Made by a program: the position numbers and the translations under genes
Notes under the pieces: generated by a model
Seen by the model: the letters and a program-made list of their open reading frames with translations, nothing else
Database searches by the model: none
What the model was told of the DNA's origin: nothing
Virus record (IMG/VR): IMGVR_UViG_2541047839_000003
DNA from: a virus
Lineage: Duplodnaviria; Heunggongvirae; Uroviricota; Caudoviricetes
Length of the DNA: 6,204 bases
Reading direction: 5' to 3' (one strand)
Shown: positions 793-6,046 of the stretch, piece by piece
Layout of the letters: every line of letters starts with the position of its first letter
Numbering within the stretch: position 1 is the first letter of the stretch

Positions 793-1119
793 ATGTCTAC
801 TACTGCATTTTTGGACAAACTTGATTACCGTCAGCTGCAGTTCTGCCGGGATGAATGCGAACGACGCATTAGGGCTATCCAGGAGGAAGAAAAAAAGGTC
901 GCCTGGGCTGTAACAGATCGTGGCCTTATCTTTGGCTGGTTCCGTACGGAGGATTATCTGAAAGCAGTGGAATTATTGGCGCGTAAGGCTGCTGAGCGTT
1001 GGGAACGAGCCGACAAGGAAAACCCGGAGACGAAGTATGAACTGAATCTCTACATCGAGGGCAACCGTCTACCATTGTCAGAGTATAACGCTTTGTTTGC
1101 TGATGGTGAGTGGGGTTAA
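793..1119 (+). CDS. hypothetical protein (108 aa), charged and probably cytoplasmic
   Basis: Listed ORF with GGGGAG at 780-785 about 7 nt upstream of ATG 793; stop TAA 1117-1119 lies 2 nt before the next start. No family recognised. Confidence 0.6.
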   Translation: MSTTAFLDKLDYRQLQFCRDECERRIRAIQEEEKKVAWAVTDRGLIFGWFRTEDYLKAVELLARKAAERWERADKENPETKYELNLYIEGNRLPLSEYNALFADGEWG

Positions 1120-1121
1120 AA

Positions 1122-1517
1122 ATGGCTGTTCAATCATACAAATACGAATCCCCTTTGGATAAGGGATACATTCGTATCAAGTTAAGTCGTTCTCAGCATA
1201 AGGCTATTTTTAAGGTAAGGAAAATTCGCATATTGGATGCGTATGCGTATTACTACAACGGTGAAAATGTTGTTGTTGAACACTTTCTTGCACGATGGTT
1301 TGTAGCTCTGATTTTTGTCCCTCTCCTGTTAATTGGTACTTTTGTGGATGGTTTTCCTAGTACATGGCGGGAGATAAAGAAAGGCCTATTCCCGCGTAAG
1401 TACGGCAGATTTTCGCAAGATAGCTGGCGAGTTATACCAGGTAAACATTCTGTGGATGAGCAGCCGATTGTTGATTACTGGTTGAAGCGTATGGCTGATG
1501 CTAAAAAAGTTGATTGA
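1122..1517 (+). CDS. hypothetical small membrane protein (131 aa from ATG 1122)
   Basis: The listed ORF 1110..1517 begins at GTG; ATG at 1122 with a G-rich stretch upstream is the more likely start. One predicted transmembrane helix (WFVALIFVPLLLIGTFV) in a basic protein. Tightly coupled to the upstream 108-aa gene. Confidence 0.55.
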   Translation: MAVQSYKYESPLDKGYIRIKLSRSQHKAIFKVRKIRILDAYAYYYNGENVVVEHFLARWFVALIFVPLLLIGTFVDGFPSTWREIKKGLFPRKYGRFSQDSWRVIPGKHSVDEQPIVDYWLKRMADAKKVD

Positions 1518-1523
1518 ATAGTG

Positions 1524-1565
1524 ATGACTGTTCAAGTTAAACCGTTCTCGGCATATTTTATTTAA
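1524..1565 (+). repeat. degenerate duplicated copy of the 5' end of the 1122..1517 gene
   Basis: ATGACTGTTCAA at 1524-1535 matches ATGGCTGTTCAA at 1122-1133, and 1532-1555 (TCAAGTTAAACCGTTCTCGGCATA) matches 1177-1200 (TCAAGTTAAGTCGTTCTCAGCATA) at 22 of 24 positions. Relative to the full copy, 47 bp between two TCAA microhomologies are missing, which shifts the frame; it reads only 13 codons before a stop. Confidence 0.6.
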
Positions 1566-1606: not shown

Positions 1607-2419
1607 ATGCGTAACAAAAAAACAACAGCTTTATTACTCTCTATCTTGTTATTATCTGGATGCACTTATCAATATGATAATAAGGCATCAACGGACGTTG
1701 AGTATAAATTCGAAAAAGAAAAAAGAGTACCTATCAACTCTGTTGGTGATTTTAGCAGCAAAATACTCACAGGTAAGGAATTTAATAGAATTATTGCATC
1801 AAAGATAGATGATGGTTCATGGCGTGGATATGTCGTTCACTCATTAACATACGCGCCATACAACAACGTTTTAACATCTCAAGGTTTGTCTATCCCTAGA
1901 AGTATCACATACTCAGGAACATATCTTAACCGTGATTTTGTTGAGAATAGCGGTAGTGATAGCGTGATAACATCTCGAGATATGTCTGGATGGTATGGTT
2001 TTCATGTCGATTCCTCTGAAATAACAAAGCATGGAAGCTATGTTGGTGCTAATGCTTTTGGAATATCTGCTGATGTAGAAGTGTTAAATACTTTAGGTGC
2101 CGAAATTATCTTTGGTAGTACACAAATAAATGAAGGGAACCCTGAAACAATATGGGCAGATATTGATATAAAAGGACAAATACCAAAAGATGTTAATGTA
2201 AAAGACCTTAGAATTGAATATTTAGCAAAGATAAATGGGTTAAGCAGTAATCATATTGATATAACATCACCTACTATTTTTAACCCGTCAGATATGAGCC
2301 ATAAAACTCAGGTTTTTATGGGTGAGTTATTAGCCGCGCGCCTAATAAATATTAAAACGGGAGAAATTTATCCAGTACAGCTAGAGTGGGTGTTCCGTTC
2401 GCGTGAGGCTTTCTTATAA
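1607..2419 (+). CDS. lipoprotein of unknown function (270 aa) on an AT-rich insert
   Basis: N-terminus MRNKKTTALLLSILLLSGC has a basic n-region, hydrophobic core and lipobox LSGC with Cys19, followed by Thr at +2. The mature part is rich in S/T/N/G/Y. The gene is visibly much more AT-rich than its flanks. Confidence 0.75.
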   Translation: MRNKKTTALLLSILLLSGCTYQYDNKASTDVEYKFEKEKRVPINSVGDFSSKILTGKEFNRIIASKIDDGSWRGYVVHSLTYAPYNNVLTSQGLSIPRSITYSGTYLNRDFVENSGSDSVITSRDMSGWYGFHVDSSEITKHGSYVGANAFGISADVEVLNTLGAEIIFGSTQINEGNPETIWADIDIKGQIPKDVNVKDLRIEYLAKINGLSSNHIDITSPTIFNPSDMSHKTQVFMGELLAARLINIKTGEIYPVQLEWVFRSREAFL

Positions 2420-2480
2420 CGGAACAATAACATTGTTCATGTTCTGATCGTTTGTTCAAGCAAACTATAAAAACACCTGT

Positions 2481-2500
2481 CCCCGTGACTGGTCACGGGG
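2481..2500. promoter_or_regulatory. perfect 20-bp GC-rich palindrome (operator or hairpin)
   Basis: CCCCGTGAC-TG-GTCACGGGG is fully self-complementary. It sits between the lipoprotein gene and the promoter-like element at 2521 and is not followed by a T-run on the plus strand. Confidence 0.4.
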
Positions 2501-2550: not shown

Positions 2551-2610
2551 CACCTCGCTGCGGTAAATCCCGCAGTCGGGACTTCGCAATCCTGGCAAAA
2601 CGAAGCGCAC

Positions 2611-2634
2611 AACACGCGCCAGCGTGTTTTTTTG
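2611..2634 (+). terminator. intrinsic terminator / attenuator in the operon leader
   Basis: Stem CACGC (2613-2617) / GCGTG (2622-2626) with loop GCCA, extendable by two A-T pairs, followed by a run of seven T (2627-2633). It lies inside the leader, upstream of the structured RNA element and the first ORF. Confidence 0.5.
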
Positions 2635-2664
2635 TGTGTATAGACCTGCGCATATCCGAATTAT

Positions 2665-2743
2665 GGTGGCTCAGGTGGGGCTGACTTCGGTCGGGCCGGT
2701 TTCTTCGTTTACCGGTATTGCGAACCCCGCCTGGGCTACCACC
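2665..2743 (+). ncRNA. candidate C4/CI-type immunity antisense RNA (structured ~80-nt element); boundaries approximate
   Basis: A long-range stem closes the element: GGTGG 2665-2669 with CCACC 2739-2743, CAGG 2672-2675 with CCTG 2730-2733, TGGGG 2676-2680 with CCCCG 2725-2729. It encloses two hairpins: CTGAC-TTCG-GTCGG (2681-2694) and CCGG-loop-CCGG (2696-2715). The second loop contains CTTCGTTT (2703-2710), complementary to AAACGAAG (2598-2605) in the leader and, with one G-U pair, to AAACGGAG (2784-2791) over the GGAG of the next ORF. Confidence 0.35.
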
Positions 2744-2799
2744 AATAAAGAGATTCGCAACTCTGGTGGTAGCACGACCAATAAAACGGAGTGCATACC

Positions 2800-2964
2800 A
2801 TGTTCAAATTCAAATTTGCGGCAGTCGTTCGCACAGACAAAAAGTCCCACATTCATCATCTTTCCACTATCGCGTCATCTGAACGGGAAGCTCGTCGCCA
2901 GTTCGCCAGCCGGTTTGTCCTGGTATTGTCTGCCCGTATTCCGGTGCGCGAGGTGGCTGCATGA
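2800..2964 (+). CDS. Icd-like small protein (54 aa), candidate cell-division inhibitor and first gene of the operon
   Basis: ORF MFKFKFAAVVRTDKKSHIHHLSTIASSEREARRQFASRFVLVLSARIPVREVAA, too short for the supplied track. GGAG at 2788-2791 lies 8 nt before ATG 2800. Its stop overlaps the next start (ATGA at 2961-2964). Size, position and the motif resemble Icd-like proteins as I recall them; not verified by alignment. Confidence 0.55.
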   Translation: MFKFKFAAVVRTDKKSHIHHLSTIASSEREARRQFASRFVLVLSARIPVREVAA

Positions 2965-3194
2965 ATCAGGTAAAAATGAACGCTGTTGGCCTGCTGGAAT
3001 CGTTGGATGAACGTCTGGCTCAGGTCTATGCGCTCGTATCATCAGCCCATCGGACAGTCTCCAGCTGTGAGGCGTCGATTTATCTCTCAGAAGCAGGGAA
3101 ACTCCTTCAAATTGCGTGTGAGTTAACACACGAAGCACAGGGGTATTCAGCATCTCTCTCGTCGCAATTGCAGCACAATAAGGAGGCCAAATGA
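2961..3194 (+). CDS. hypothetical small protein (77 aa), middle gene of the operon
   Basis: Listed ORF; GAGGTGG at 2951-2957 precedes ATG 2961. Its stop overlaps the next start (ATGA at 3191-3194). No family recognised; it occupies the position of an antirepressor accessory gene. Confidence 0.55.
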   Translation: MNQVKMNAVGLLESLDERLAQVYALVSSAHRTVSSCEASIYLSEAGKLLQIACELTHEAQGYSASLSSQLQHNKEAK

Positions 3195-3973
3195 GCGCGT
3201 TAGCTGTATTTTCGTTTCAGGAAGAGCATCAGGTTCGTGTAGTGATGATTAACGGTGAGCCGTGGTTTGTGGCTAAGGATGTATGTGATGCTTTAAGACT
3301 CGTTAATTCCCGGAAGGCGCTAATGTCTCTGGATGAGGATGAAAAGGGTGTAACTTTAAGTTACACCCCTGGCGGAGAGCAAAAGCTAAATATTATTTCA
3401 GAGTCAGGTCTATACACCCTGATCCTCCGCTGCCGTGACGCGGTGAAGCAAGGCACAACAGCTTGGCGGTTTCGCAAATGGGTAACGAACGAAGTCTTGC
3501 CCTCTATTCGCAAAAATGGAGAGTACGTTTACATCGAGCCTGAGCCAATGCGAGCAGCGGAGCCGTTGAACTGGAGGCAGAAAGAGTATCTGCGAGGGCT
3601 GATTAACGATATAGCACAAAGTTTTCAGTACCGAAATGCCTGGATTAGCGGTGTATGGTTAGCTTTGCGTCGGGCGTGTCGTAATCCATCCCCGAACCCC
3701 ATAACGGTTGATGATTTGCCAGCAATTACGGCAGAACTGCGCCGGATTTTGACGGCTGCTGAGTCGGCATTGGGGAACATGCGCACGTATGAACGAGAGT
3801 TGTTGCGTGATGTTGTTCGTGGGGGTAGGCGGAGTATGTCGTGTGGTGATTTACCCATCACCGATATTAACTCTGATCTGGAAAAGGCGTTACCCGCGCA
3901 TTTTGAACTGGCAGTTCAAAAACTTGAGCAGTTATCCGCGCAGCTAAAGCCAGCAGAAATCACCAATAAATAG
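3191..3973 (+). CDS. Bro-N domain protein, antirepressor-like (260 aa)
   Basis: N-terminal ~110 aa (FSFQEEHQVRVVMINGEPWFVAKDVCDALRL ... ESGLYTLILRCRDAVKQGTTAWRFRKWVTNEVLPSIRKNGEY) matches the Bro-N signature seen in phage Ant/KilA-type proteins. AGGAGG at 3181-3186 precedes ATG 3191; stop TAG 3971-3973. Confidence 0.85.
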   Translation: MSALAVFSFQEEHQVRVVMINGEPWFVAKDVCDALRLVNSRKALMSLDEDEKGVTLSYTPGGEQKLNIISESGLYTLILRCRDAVKQGTTAWRFRKWVTNEVLPSIRKNGEYVYIEPEPMRAAEPLNWRQKEYLRGLINDIAQSFQYRNAWISGVWLALRRACRNPSPNPITVDDLPAITAELRRILTAAESALGNMRTYERELLRDVVRGGRRSMSCGDLPITDINSDLEKALPAHFELAVQKLEQLSAQLKPAEITNK

Positions 3974-4144: not shown

Positions 4145-6046
4145 TTAACCGAAATATGTCAGCCATGCTAACTGCATTGCTGACATGGGGCTGTTTGCAC
4201 TGCCGGACCACGCATAATTCTGGCCATTATAATGAAACTCAACAACGTATGAGCCATCACCAATATTTCTCACCGGCTTAAATACCGGCTTAGATACAGG
4301 CGAAGAAGGTGCAGGCGGTTGCTGTTCTTCTACGCTATCTTCCTCTTCCTCTTCCTCTTCCTCTATCTCAATTTCGTCGTCATCCAGATCGTCATCCTCT
4401 GATAATTCATCCGCCAGTTCAGGTATTGCTTCCAGTTCTTCTTCGTCAGGCATAACGATTTCTGGAGTATCTATTTTCAGTTGCCATTGTCCGTTTTCGC
4501 CAACAAATTGCCCCAGAGCATCAGCAGCAAATTCCAGGTATCGACTAATCATTGTTGGGCTAAATTTGAACGCTCTTAGAGTGCTGTTCGTGATTTTTAT
4601 AGAGGGGTCCTGCTCTACCAGCTGCTTAACTGTGTTATGCAGACGAACCCCGGCATCTCCTCTGGCGAATCCAGGCATTTCGTCATCAAGCTGCTGCAAT
4701 GCTTCCAGCCTGGTATTTTCGTTTCCAGTATTTGGCCTCCATGTCTTTGAGAAGTTGGCCAGCTTGAATTGCTTATAGTGTAATTGAGTGTTTTCATCGT
4801 CATGGCCTAAAATTTCCATAAAGAAAACATCTTCATCTACGTTTTTCCAACGAGGATCTACGCGGAAAAACATTTCATACGCAATACGGGCATAAATAGC
4901 ACGACTATCTTTATAAACACGGCGGTCATCTTTGAAAAATGATTTAACCCACGGGTTAAAAGCCTTTGCTAATATGGCATTAATACGTCCGTTTTCAGAG
5001 CGTGTGTCGTTATCTCCATAACCTTTAACGACATCATCAAAATCAGATGCTGCTGGGCATGAGCGAAGTACATTTATTAAATAAACAAATGTTTTTGCTT
5101 CGCATAATGTATATATTTTTCTGGTTATATTATCAGAAGTTCTTTTTTTAGCTTGGCCTAAAAAATCAACGGTATACTTACCAGAAACAGTAAATGTACC
5201 TTGATACATAATCTCAATCATTCGTCTTCCTGACAATGCAGCAAGTGCAAATGCCAAAGGAGCCATACCTGAACGAGTGTTTAGATTATTTAATGTAGCA
5301 GGGCTATTTATAATATCGTAAATAGCTTGCATATATTTAGGGTAATCAATGACCACCACGTTACGTTTCTTATTGTGCAGAACGTCCGCCCATCGTTGCT
5401 GGATAGATGCACGTTCGGCAGGGCTTAGTTGAAGATGATAGAGAATCTCATGGTTAACTTTTAGCTGATTCAACTCCTCAAGTAAGGCAGATCCTTGCTG
5501 TAGTAATTTATATAAATAATCGCGCTTATCTTTCCAGTTATCGCTAGTTAAATCAGAAATGGCGAATTGCCACTCTTTATATTTATTTGATAATTTCAAT
5601 AACTTATTATGACTTTTGTTATCGCCAATTCTGATATTAGATAAATCTTCTGATAGAGGGAGAATTAATTTTAATTTTGCCTGTAAAGCTGACATTCTCT
5701 GGCGAATATCGGCAGCAGGTAGAGAAAGCCATGACAATAGCTCCTCATTATATAAAGGATACTTTTCAGATAGGCGATGTATATTTTTTTCAAAGCTATG
5801 ATGAAGTTTATCATCAAACCGTTTTCTGGCCCTGCTCATATAGGCATTGAATGTGTTGGCTGTAATTCTTTTTTCTAATCCTTTCCCCCTAAACTTTCGC
5901 TTGTCATTAAATAATGCATTTTTAAATTTTAATGCAACAGCCTTTATTTTTTTTGTTTTCTCCCCTTGAGGACGGTCAGAGTTATCTATTGACTCAACAT
6001 CGCTAACAAGTGAGTTTATTAATTCACCGATTTTTACTTTGCTCAT
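4145..6046 (-). CDS. telN: protelomerase (telomere resolvase), TelN/TelK family, complete, 633 aa
   Basis: The translation is recognisably close along its length to N15 TelN as I recall it (MSKVKIGELIN..., KRITANTFNAYMSRARKRFDDKLHHSF, TRSGMAPLAFALAA.SGRRMIEIM, RSENGRINAILAKAFNPWVKSF, ILGHDDENTQLHYKQFKLANFS). His423-Tyr424 (Tyr codon at 4775-4777) sits where I recall the TelN catalytic tyrosine. The start is preceded by AGGAGAGG on the minus strand; stop TAA at 4145-4147. Confidence 0.93.
   Translation of the reverse strand: MSKVKIGELINSLVSDVESIDNSDRPQGEKTKKIKAVALKFKNALFNDKRKFRGKGLEKRITANTFNAYMSRARKRFDDKLHHSFEKNIHRLSEKYPLYNEELLSWLSLPAADIRQRMSALQAKLKLILPLSEDLSNIRIGDNKSHNKLLKLSNKYKEWQFAISDLTSDNWKDKRDYLYKLLQQGSALLEELNQLKVNHEILYHLQLSPAERASIQQRWADVLHNKKRNVVVIDYPKYMQAIYDIINSPATLNNLNTRSGMAPLAFALAALSGRRMIEIMYQGTFTVSGKYTVDFLGQAKKRTSDNITRKIYTLCEAKTFVYLINVLRSCPAASDFDDVVKGYGDNDTRSENGRINAILAKAFNPWVKSFFKDDRRVYKDSRAIYARIAYEMFFRVDPRWKNVDEDVFFMEILGHDDENTQLHYKQFKLANFSKTWRPNTGNENTRLEALQQLDDEMPGFARGDAGVRLHNTVKQLVEQDPSIKITNSTLRAFKFSPTMISRYLEFAADALGQFVGENGQWQLKIDTPEIVMPDEEELEAIPELADELSEDDDLDDDEIEIEEEEEEEEDSVEEQQPPAPSSPVSKPVFKPVRNIGDGSYVVEFHYNGQNYAWSGSANSPMSAMQLAWLTYFG
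4338..4363 (-). repeat. (CTTCCT)4 hexamer repeat encoding an eight-Glu run in the telN linker
   Basis: TCTTCCTCTTCCTCTTCCTCTTCCTC on the plus strand corresponds to (GAG GAA)4 on the coding strand, inside the acidic segment DDDEIEIEEEEEEEEDSVEE. Confidence 0.8.

Follow-up and report, generated by a model that had tools for sequence, protein, structure and literature searches.

A remnant of a neighbouring gene's 5' region at the edge of a cargo slot in N15-like linear phage-plasmids

The 6.2-kb stretch of DNA analysed here (the "window") is part of a linear phage-plasmid of Escherichia that is N15-like (Ravinvirus-type). Directly downstream of an intact gene encoding a 131-residue protein (the "131-aa gene"), it carries a short stretch, at 1524-1555, that derives from the 5' region of this gene and is not a dispersed motif. 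This stretch is probably what is left of a partial second copy of the gene 5' end, a fossil devoid of function that arose through microhomology-mediated recombination. Around it is a hypervariable cargo slot, whose left boundary is the stop codon of the 131-aa gene with the next 6 nt and whose right boundary is a conserved hairpin unit preceding immA. The remnant is best read as a scar of ordinary phage mosaicism, which is a well-known kind of thing, and not as a reusable cassette-exchange motif.

Genomic context

The genes and other features of the window are collected in Table 1. Their order is that of the N15 region reaching from repA (gene 37) to immA (genes 33-36, followed by the antirepressor operon under small-RNA control). 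The immA organisation of N15 has been described (PMC4488713). In the window, the isrK-like and C4-type antisense RNAs are Rfam matches of 52.8 and 82.3 bits, respectively. The nearest phage records, YDC107_1 and PhiR46_1, are 96% identical to the window over only 72-74% of its length, because both are devoid of the lipoprotein segment. About 50 related loci were taken from plasmid, phage, E. coli genome, viral contig, and metagenome collections for comparison.

Table 1. Features of the window, with their positions, strand, and basis or remarks.
Feature	Position	Strand	Basis or remark
repA, 3' end	to 604		
Short ORF overlapping the repA stop codon	to 788		3' part corresponds to the 192-nt CDS annotated in PhiR46_1
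108-aa gene	793-1119		
131-aa gene, intact, parent of the remnant	1122-1517	plus	ORF list; phrog_15458
Parental block 1, ATGGCTGTTCAA	1122-1133	plus	start codon and 9 nt, ending in the first TCAA (1130-1133)
Parental block 2, TCAAGTTAAGTCGTTCTCAGCATA	1177-1200	plus	opens with the second TCAA (1177-1180)
Stop codon (TGA) of the 131-aa gene	1515-1517		
Spacer ATAGTG, 3' of this stop codon	1518-1523	plus	
Remnant block 1, ATGACTGTTCAA	1524-1535	plus	11/12 against the gene start
Remnant block 2, TCAAGTTAAACCGTTCTCGGCATA	1532-1555	plus	21/24 against 1177-1200
CGGCATA, remnant-specific	1549-1555		inside remnant block 2
AT-rich spacer, 5' of the lipoprotein gene	1556-1606	plus	
Cargo gene, predicted lipoprotein of 270 residues	1607-2419	plus	ORF list
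Degenerate copy of the conserved N15 unit, bounding the slot on the right	2425-2460	plus	
Start of the immA-type secondary immunity operon	2557-2746	plus	Rfam, Pfam, annotations of relatives
isrK-like RNA	2557-2632		Rfam
C4-type antisense RNA	2659-2746		Rfam
icd-like gene	2800-2964		
77-aa gene	2961-3194		
Bro-N gene	3191-3973		Pfam Bro-N
Protelomerase	4145-6046	minus	

The 131-aa gene is the last of the repA-side operon. Its product belongs to phrog_15458, of unknown function (PHROG match 8.9e-92), and has no match in Pfam or NCBIfam. Homologues are found in other N15-like elements, at 64% identity in Citrobacter, 44% in Yersinia, and 31-36% in Klebsiella and Enterobacter.

Similarity of the remnant to the gene start

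Direct reading shows that both parental blocks are seen again after the stop codon of the gene (Table 1). The remnant begins 6 nt 3' of this stop codon, its similarity starts exactly at the start codon of the gene, and its two blocks, on the plus strand, follow each other in the order of the gene, with which they are collinear. TCAA stands twice in the intact gene, at a distance of exactly 47 bp, but only once in the copy. The pair of 24-mers is the only direct pair in the window with at least 21/24 matches, and none of 400 first-order Markov shuffles of the window gave any 24-mer pair reaching this level. When both strands of the complete relative L060 (47,425 bp) were searched, with up to 6 mismatches allowed for block 2 and up to 1 for block 1, the blocks were found only at the gene and at the remnant. 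The idea of a dispersed binding site was rejected on this uniqueness of the motif in the L060 genome. The segment 1518-1538 resembles the start of the 131-aa gene with p=0.0008. Beyond 1555, in the AT-rich spacer, similarity is not significant (p=0.72-0.95), and the real feature is therefore 1524-1555 (32 nt), not 1524-1565.

Read in the frame of its ATG, the copy 1524-1565 gives MTVQVKPFSAYFI and then a stop codon, out of frame with the parental codons. Its coding capacity is gone: the 47-nt gap shifts the frame and leaves a 13-codon ORF. The remnant shows three differences at the amino-acid level, two of which match natural homologues, its N being the residue of the Citrobacter homologue at that position, and its T at codon 2 that of the Klebsiella and Enterobacter homologues. 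These residues would fit descent from a once-real allele rather than random drift. Significant similarity to a parent, same-strand adjacency and collinearity with it, and loss of coding are all features of a pseudogene fragment. No promoter-like (plus strand) or terminator-like signal was called over the remnant, and its RNA folding is not unusual (z=-1.35 against shuffles).

The initial annotation had reported the recurrence of the 12-nt and 24-nt blocks 3' of the stop codon and had described the remnant as degenerate and out of frame, and both descriptions are borne out, by the above matches and by the shifted frame of what is taken as non-coding debris. It had also extended the copy to 1565, which holds as far as 1555 but not beyond, and had postulated a 47-bp deletion flanked by TCAA. 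The TCAA repeats are indeed present at that distance, but the deletion is only one reading of them, as a joint with the arm of the hairpin unit fits as well (see below).

A variable slot between fixed flanks

After the 131-aa gene, or after the gene that takes its position, at least five alternative contents are found between the same flanks. These are a 74-aa gene (YDC107_1, L013, L014, L046, and L047), a secreted 95-aa protein annotated as Spackle by one depositor (PhiR46_1 and many others), the lipoprotein (the window, L003-L005, L016, L018, L049, and L058), a YebF-like exported protein whose NCBIfam matches fall below the cut-off (L055), a 110-aa gene (L062), and a pesticin-like muramidase (L044). 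In Citrobacter L027, K. oxytoca L043, and N15, the slot holds nothing. Gene content thus differs between conserved flanks, as is expected of a moron or cargo slot, and so does base composition from that of the backbone, with a GC content of 27-36% over most of 1475-2374 (39-40% at 1850-2074) against 42-55% in the flanks.

The lipoprotein of the window has a signal peptide ending in LLSGC and is encoded by an AT-rich gene. It has no match in Pfam, PHROG, or NCBIfam and belongs to no known family. Small MOBP plasmids carry homologues with 60-62% identity, and so does an N15-like element of Enterobacter cloacae, in this same slot; only five homologue clusters were found. The AlphaFold model has a mean pLDDT of 45.6. 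There is no plus-strand promoter-like site 5' of 1607, and the only structure 3' of the lipoprotein stop codon is an AT-rich 7-bp hairpin. The true left end of the lipoprotein cassette is somewhere within 1556-1606. The AT-rich spacer showed no significant similarity to the region 5' of the YebF-like cargo (p=0.16) or to that 5' of the Enterobacter lipoprotein homologue.

On the left, each of the five cargo types has a junction of its own, nested with the others, and the start sequences of the cargoes are unrelated. The junction reads TGA-GTTGTG in the 74-aa type, TGA-(G/A)TTG(T/C)G-AT(A/G)ACTGTT in the 95-aa type, and TGA-ATAGTG-ATGACTGTTCAA-GTTAAACCGTTCTCGGCATA in the lipoprotein type, the cargo following in each case. 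The spacer 1518-1523 is backbone in common with the 95-aa type (GTTGTG, ATTGTG, or GTTGCG) and the 74-aa type (GTTGTG), and the first 9 nt of the remnant, AT(G/A)ACTGTT, are backbone common to relatives with the 95-aa cargo, which do not have block 2. The full remnant is found only with the lipoprotein cargo. All cargo types have just two boundaries in common: on the left, the gene stop codon followed by 6 nt, and on the right, the hairpin unit.

On the right side, every element resumes with one conserved unit, of the general form CAATAAC-TGATCAGG-TTCTGATCAG-..AAAG. In N15 it reads CAATAAC-TGATCAGG-TTCTGATCAG-TCAGTAAAGCAAACTATAAAAAC and stands directly 3' of the gp33 stop codon. The copy of the window is degenerate but complete (CAATAAC-AT-TGTTCATG-TTCTGATCG-TTTGTTCAAG), and homology of the window to N15 itself starts at its first position in megablast. 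Within it, TGTTCAAG at 2453-2460 repeats 1529-1536 exactly, so that the 8-mer flanks the lipoprotein cassette (p about 0.018). Locus L004, also of the lipoprotein type, has TGTTAAAG on the right side instead of the exact repeat. The left arm and loop of the conserved hairpin, ATAACTGATCAGGTT, match the remnant segment 1524-1538 at 12 of 15 positions. Simple insertion of both cargo types into the hairpin loop was considered and rejected, a complete, if degenerate, hairpin unit being present to the right of each cargo.

Among lipoprotein-type loci, the 131-aa gene alternates, in its 5' and middle parts, between two alleles that are about 15% apart (17-23 differences per 140-180 nt), and its 3' end is constant, as is the 108-aa gene. 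The remnant, the spacer, and the cargo are invariant, or nearly so, beside this mosaic gene; exchange therefore takes place through homologous recombination within the flanking gene and within the immA region rather than at the remnant. Deletions or replacements at microhomologies are evidently common in this region, with examples in L012, L013, and L014. About 650 bp are missing between two ATGG in L013, resulting in an in-frame fusion of two genes, all three small genes are deleted in L014, and a replacement starts 28 nt into the 131-aa gene in L012.

Search for a fuller second copy

No intact or longer second paralogue of the 131-aa gene was found among phages, plasmids, E. coli genomes, viral and metagenome contigs, and proteins, and the duplication is therefore deduced from 32 nt. 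Relatives keeping such a copy would be a further feature of a pseudogene fragment; only shorter fragments of the remnant were seen in them. Nor did tblastn and profile-guided locus searches of phages, plasmids, viral contigs, and metagenome contigs reveal tandem paralogues of the gene. An exact 20-mer of the remnant, the sole query used for the genome contig collection with one genome per species, was found in viral and genome contigs only in the same lipoprotein-type elements, besides one chance match. The 16-mer CGTTCTCGGCATAAGG, meant to catch a less decayed copy, and AGTTAAACGGCATAAG, meant for Citrobacter-like relatives, returned chance matches and the known Citrobacter element only. A constructed empty-site query found no empty site beside an E. 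coli-type 131-aa gene in PLSDB, the Citrobacter one being the only empty site obtained.

Plasmid records list some second "places" for the 131-aa gene, mostly in oversized records of 60-90 kb; those in the oversized records were taken as duplicated assemblies of the linear element. A 46-kb record, NZ_LR883007.1, lists three places for the gene.

Traces of the remnant in other cargo contexts

In the cargo-less Citrobacter element, 17 nt separate the stop codon of the gene from the hairpin unit, and together with this codon they read AGTTAAAC-GGCATAAG-CTAT. This stretch has the states specific to the remnant (AAAC, not AAGT, and GGCATA, not AGCATA) and continues as the gene-like AAG(G)CTAT. Its alignment to the remnant, in which both GTTAAAC and CGGCATA (with the remnant-specific G) are present, gives p=0.0026. 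The YebF-like type, which reads TAA-GTGCG-CGGCATATT, also carries CGGCATA. A 7-mer of the remnant common to all three contexts has a chance probability of 0.0008, or of 0.013 if any 7-mer of the intergenic region counts; the Citrobacter and YebF-like matches are short, and their homology to the remnant is statistical rather than certain. The remnant is probably older than the lipoprotein insertion, because CGGCATA follows the gene in the Citrobacter and YebF-like elements. On this moderate evidence, a partial second copy of the gene 5' region probably predates the arrival of the lipoprotein, the different lineages having kept different scraps of it.

Proposed origin

The events that may have led to the fossil, their order, and their mechanism are reconstructed from the similarity and uniqueness of the blocks, the slot with its nested junctions and mosaic flanks, and the shared CGGCATA; the presumed lack of function belongs to the same reconstruction. 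A short-homology (illegitimate) recombination would have placed a copy of the 5' region of the gene just 3' of it. It would likely have joined ATGGC-TGTTCA-A and/or A-TCAAGTT, in the 5' region of the gene, with ATAAC-TG(A/T)TCA-GGTT, which is similar and makes up the left arm and loop of the hairpin. The copy would then have decayed. It may have started from the ATG and later lost the 47 bp between the TCAA repeats. Alternatively, the joint may have been made directly at TCA(A/G)GTT, in which case block 1 would be a copy of the hairpin left arm, ATAACTGATCAGG, or a hybrid with it, and an E. coli-type empty site would read TGA-GTTGTG-ATAACTG(A/T)TCAGG-TTCTGATCA. Incoming cargo genes would subsequently have overwritten most of the copy, leaving 32 nt in the lipoprotein lineage, AT(A/G)ACTGTT only in the lineage with the 95-aa cargo, and fragments containing CGGCATA in the Citrobacter and YebF-like elements. 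At present, the functionless remnant would ride, frozen, with the lipoprotein cassette as this passes from element to element through ordinary homologous recombination within the flanking gene and within the immA region.

The statistics are split as to block 1, whose origin, in the gene start or in the hairpin arm, is ambiguous. In the window, 1518-1538 fits the gene start as given above and the hairpin arm with p=0.02; at the homologous junction of the 95-aa type, the hairpin arm fits (p=0.016) and the gene start does not (p=0.52). ATAA-CTG-TTCA, the start seen in the 95-aa type, is exactly the product expected if the arm (ATAA-CTG-ATCA) crossed over with the gene start (ATGG-CTG-TTCA); we infer that such an event would reconcile both results.

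Alternative explanations

A chance resemblance in AT-rich DNA might be argued from blocks that are short (12 and 24 nt) and were picked after the fact, but it is effectively refuted by the shuffles, by the uniqueness of both blocks in 47 kb, and by their adjacent and collinear position beside the parent gene. Another account has the gene-like block arriving together with the lipoprotein, either as donor DNA, if the cassette of the donor phage lay inside an allele of the 131-aa gene, or as filler that template switching took from the nearby gene while the cassette was being joined to the backbone at the TCAAG(TT) microhomology. Microhomology-mediated repair is known to leave short templated patches at illegitimate junctions, and the confinement of the full remnant to the lipoprotein cargo, where it is invariant, is in line with such an arrival. 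So are the end of the backbone common to the 95-aa type at ACTGTT (1532), immediately 5' of the block, and the difference of the block from every sampled resident allele, with states known in other alleles. We nevertheless consider this account unlikely. Filler DNA would match its template fully at first, but 3 of 20 positions differ; CGGCATA, with its remnant-specific G, and GTTAAAC follow the gene in elements free of the lipoprotein; and neither the Enterobacter element (60% lipoprotein homologue, same slot) nor the small plasmids have the block upstream.

A function of the remnant is improbable, be it as a translationally coupled 13-codon leader ORF (1524-1565) or as an RNA or DNA element for read-through into the lipoprotein gene from the repA-side operon. 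Its ATG does stand 6 nt after the upstream stop codon, TTGAATAGT and ACTGTTCAA form a 9-bp inverted repeat spanning the stop codon and the ATG, and a small CCG-TTCT-CGG hairpin is followed by a T-rich run, but no Shine-Dalgarno sequence is present, most relatives of the 95-aa type have ATA instead of ATG, the fold is no better than that of shuffles, and neither a terminator nor a plus-strand promoter was called at the remnant. The sequence is 100% conserved in all lipoprotein-type loci, and CGGCATA is kept in three contexts; the whole cassette, however, is nearly identical among these loci, whose similarity makes conservation uninformative as to whether the remnant is a neutral passenger or a constrained element. 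The motif is also found nowhere else in the L060 genome, which speaks equally against a dedicated exchange site, of the att or integron attC kind, used repeatedly to swap cargo. Such a site has very little probability, even though several cargo genes occupy one slot bordered by a conserved palindromic unit, an exact 8-mer stands at both ends of the cassette, and GTTAAAC would fit GTTRRRY, the core consensus of integrons. Between cargo types, the left junctions are non-identical and nested, the right side of L004 departs from the 8-mer, and the Enterobacter element and the 74-aa cargo are joined at other positions. Neither a common core at the junctions of different cassettes nor a cognate recombinase was found, the annotation of L060 listing no integrase, recombinase, or transposase except the protelomerase. 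As to a transposon insertion with target-site duplication, the insert contains a single ORF, that of the lipoprotein, and no terminal inverted repeats were seen on direct reading of its two ends. Finally, N15-like telomere phages might capture cargo genes at a structure-directed hot spot, the conserved palindromic unit 3' of the repA-side operon (CTGATCAGG-TT-CTGATCAG, containing two GATC sites), but we regard this as highly improbable. If the unit acted in this way, replication stalling or slipping at the hairpin would repeatedly make short duplications and insertions, and the gene-start remnant and the arm-like duplicates flanking the cargo would be their footprints.

A decayed partial copy of the gene 5' end is the reading retained here, and the claims of the initial annotation on origin fare unequally beside it. 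Of its tandem duplication followed by decay, a partial duplication survives as the most economical account, but the relatives with an intact second paralogue to which it had looked were not found. Relatives with another cargo after the same gene (74-aa, 95-aa, YebF-like, and others), to which it had also pointed, do exist. Its cassette-exchange boundary at a conserved gene start is right in placing the remnant at the left edge of the variable segment, but the junctions are nested and the remnant is not a boundary motif common to them. That the remnant marks the junction used to insert the lipoprotein gene is not borne out, the remnant being probably the older of the two, with CGGCATA present in lipoprotein-free elements.

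Relation to known systems

The Hendrix-type model of phage mosaicism accounts for gene remnants at the mosaic junctions of temperate phages by illegitimate recombination and subsequent selection. The present case resembles them in being a short decayed piece of a neighbouring gene at the border between backbone and variable segment, with junctions at or near gene boundaries and with alternative sequences between the same flanks in related phages. Unlike them, it copies the gene immediately upstream, as a partial tandem duplicate, and not a foreign gene, and its fragments seem to be kept in several cargo contexts. Microhomology-mediated deletions and duplications arise by slipped mispairing or unequal exchange between short direct repeats. 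Accordingly, the 47-bp gap is bounded by a 4-nt TCAA repeat of which one copy is left, and this region of sister elements has undergone other deletions, at microhomologies of 2-4 nt. In contrast with the known cases, the event is deduced from one decayed copy, and the hairpin-arm joint explains the same bases without a deletion.

Phage morons are accessory genes located between conserved operons, often with a deviant base composition, as in lambdoid phages. Likewise, the AT-rich lipoprotein gene lies between two conserved transcription units, where relatives have other small secreted or membrane proteins, or nothing. Where a moron would have a promoter and a terminator of its own, the lipoprotein cargo shows no plus-strand promoter-like site and only the AT-rich hairpin 3' of its stop codon, and the present finding is a scar beside a moron rather than the moron itself. 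N15 itself has the conserved unit (CAATAACTGATCAGGTTCTGATCAG..AAAGCAAACTATAAAAAC) ahead of immA, but it carries gp33 and gp34 instead of the 131-aa gene, has neither cargo nor remnant, and the gp33 stop codon lies inside its unit.

The remnant matters little alone. As a fossil, it would show that microhomology-mediated recombination shuffles the accessory genes of N15-like phage-plasmids at one slot and that homologous recombination in the flanks then spreads them. Its use lies in annotation and comparative work, for which it fixes the limits of the slot, with the stop codon of the 131-aa gene on one side and, on the other, the CAATAAC-hairpin unit ahead of immA. In these elements, which are widespread in Enterobacteriaceae, the slot contains lineage-specific secreted or membrane proteins of unknown function, among them an uncharacterised lipoprotein family that also occurs on small mobilisable plasmids.

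Borders and contents of the cargo slot

The slot between the stop of the 131-aa gene and the immA operon is delimited on its right side by a hairpin unit that is kept across N15-like elements. Its stem is palindromic, spans 8 bp and includes two GATC sites; in the window copy, the left arm has decayed to TGTTCATG and pairing is lost. At the left side, a 9-bp inverted repeat places the ATG of the remnant, the partial copy of the 131-aa gene's 5' end, within its loop. This repeat is limited to the loci carrying the lipoprotein gene as cargo, and RNA folding of the surrounding region was overall no better than that of shuffled sequences.

The 270-aa lipoprotein (window 1607-2419) has no match in Pfam, PHROG or NCBIfam, and its AlphaFold prediction (pLDDT 45.6) is too poor for use. 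Its family is uncharacterised and small, comprising only five homologue clusters; homologue loci are L020, L021 and L022. Homologues of 60-62% identity are encoded by MOBP mobilisable plasmids of 3.7-4.4 kb from Enterobacter and Klebsiella, where they adjoin a rep-like gene. Another occupies the same cargo position in an N15-like element from Enterobacter cloacae, 3' of a gp33-like gene. A further type of cargo, an exported protein present in the related locus L055, weakly resembles YebF (an NCBIfam match of 1.4e-09 that falls short of the cut-off). It is accompanied by a 131-aa gene having a different 3' end, ...WLKYMVDTHKAD.

Features in the window and in related loci
Feature	Location	Description
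Inverted repeat, 9 bp	window 1513-1534	TTGAATAGT / ACTGTTCAA, across the 131-aa gene's stop codon
Conserved hairpin unit	window 2425-2460; L064 1800-1845; all related loci	CAATAAC-TGATCAGG-TT-CTGATCAG-..AAAGCAAACTATAAAAAC
Perfect palindrome, 9-bp arms	window 2481-2500	CCCCGTGAC-TG-GTCACGGGG
Hexanucleotide run (CCTCTT)n	window 4309-4400	C-terminal part of the protelomerase gene, minus strand
Replacement	L012 ~1553-1760	from 28 nt inside the 131-aa gene; incoming piece is a gp33-like gene fragment
Deletion, ~650 bp, at ATGG	L013 ~2700-2720	in-frame fusion of the gp36-like start with the 131-aa gene's final 8 codons
Deletion	L014 ~2735-2745	repA stop codon joined to the final 9 nt of the 131-aa gene
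IS2	L005 1261-2489	E. albertii element; lipoprotein gene split in its signal-peptide region
ISKpn26 (IS5 family)	L009 1708-2688	ETEC element; 131-aa gene split
118-aa exported protein	L055 2024-2380	further cargo type of the same slot

Rearrangements in related elements

Microhomology-mediated rearrangements have hit the same region in three sister elements (L012, L013 and L014), and two insertion sequences were found in the segment. Several of these 46-47-kb linear elements have been deposited as oversized "circular plasmid" records in which the region is present twice, such as NZ_CP014491.1 (62.6 kb), NZ_CP019258.1 (75 kb) and CP088430.1 (91.5 kb). The doubling apparently arose where assemblies ran on through the hairpin telomeres, and such records raise apparent copy numbers in searches.

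Immunity operon and protelomerase

The perfect palindrome, retained in relatives, is a possible operator or terminator; the isrK/C4/icd operon has a promoter-like site (TTGACG, 2521) shortly 3' of it. Downstream, Rfam gives hits to isrK (52.8 bits) and to C4 antisense RNA (82.3 bits) in tandem within 2557-2746, 5' of an icd-like gene, a layout of the P1/P4/N15 anti-immunity type, under small-RNA control. Finally, the hexanucleotide run encodes an acidic EEEEEEEE/D-rich tract close to the protelomerase C-terminus.
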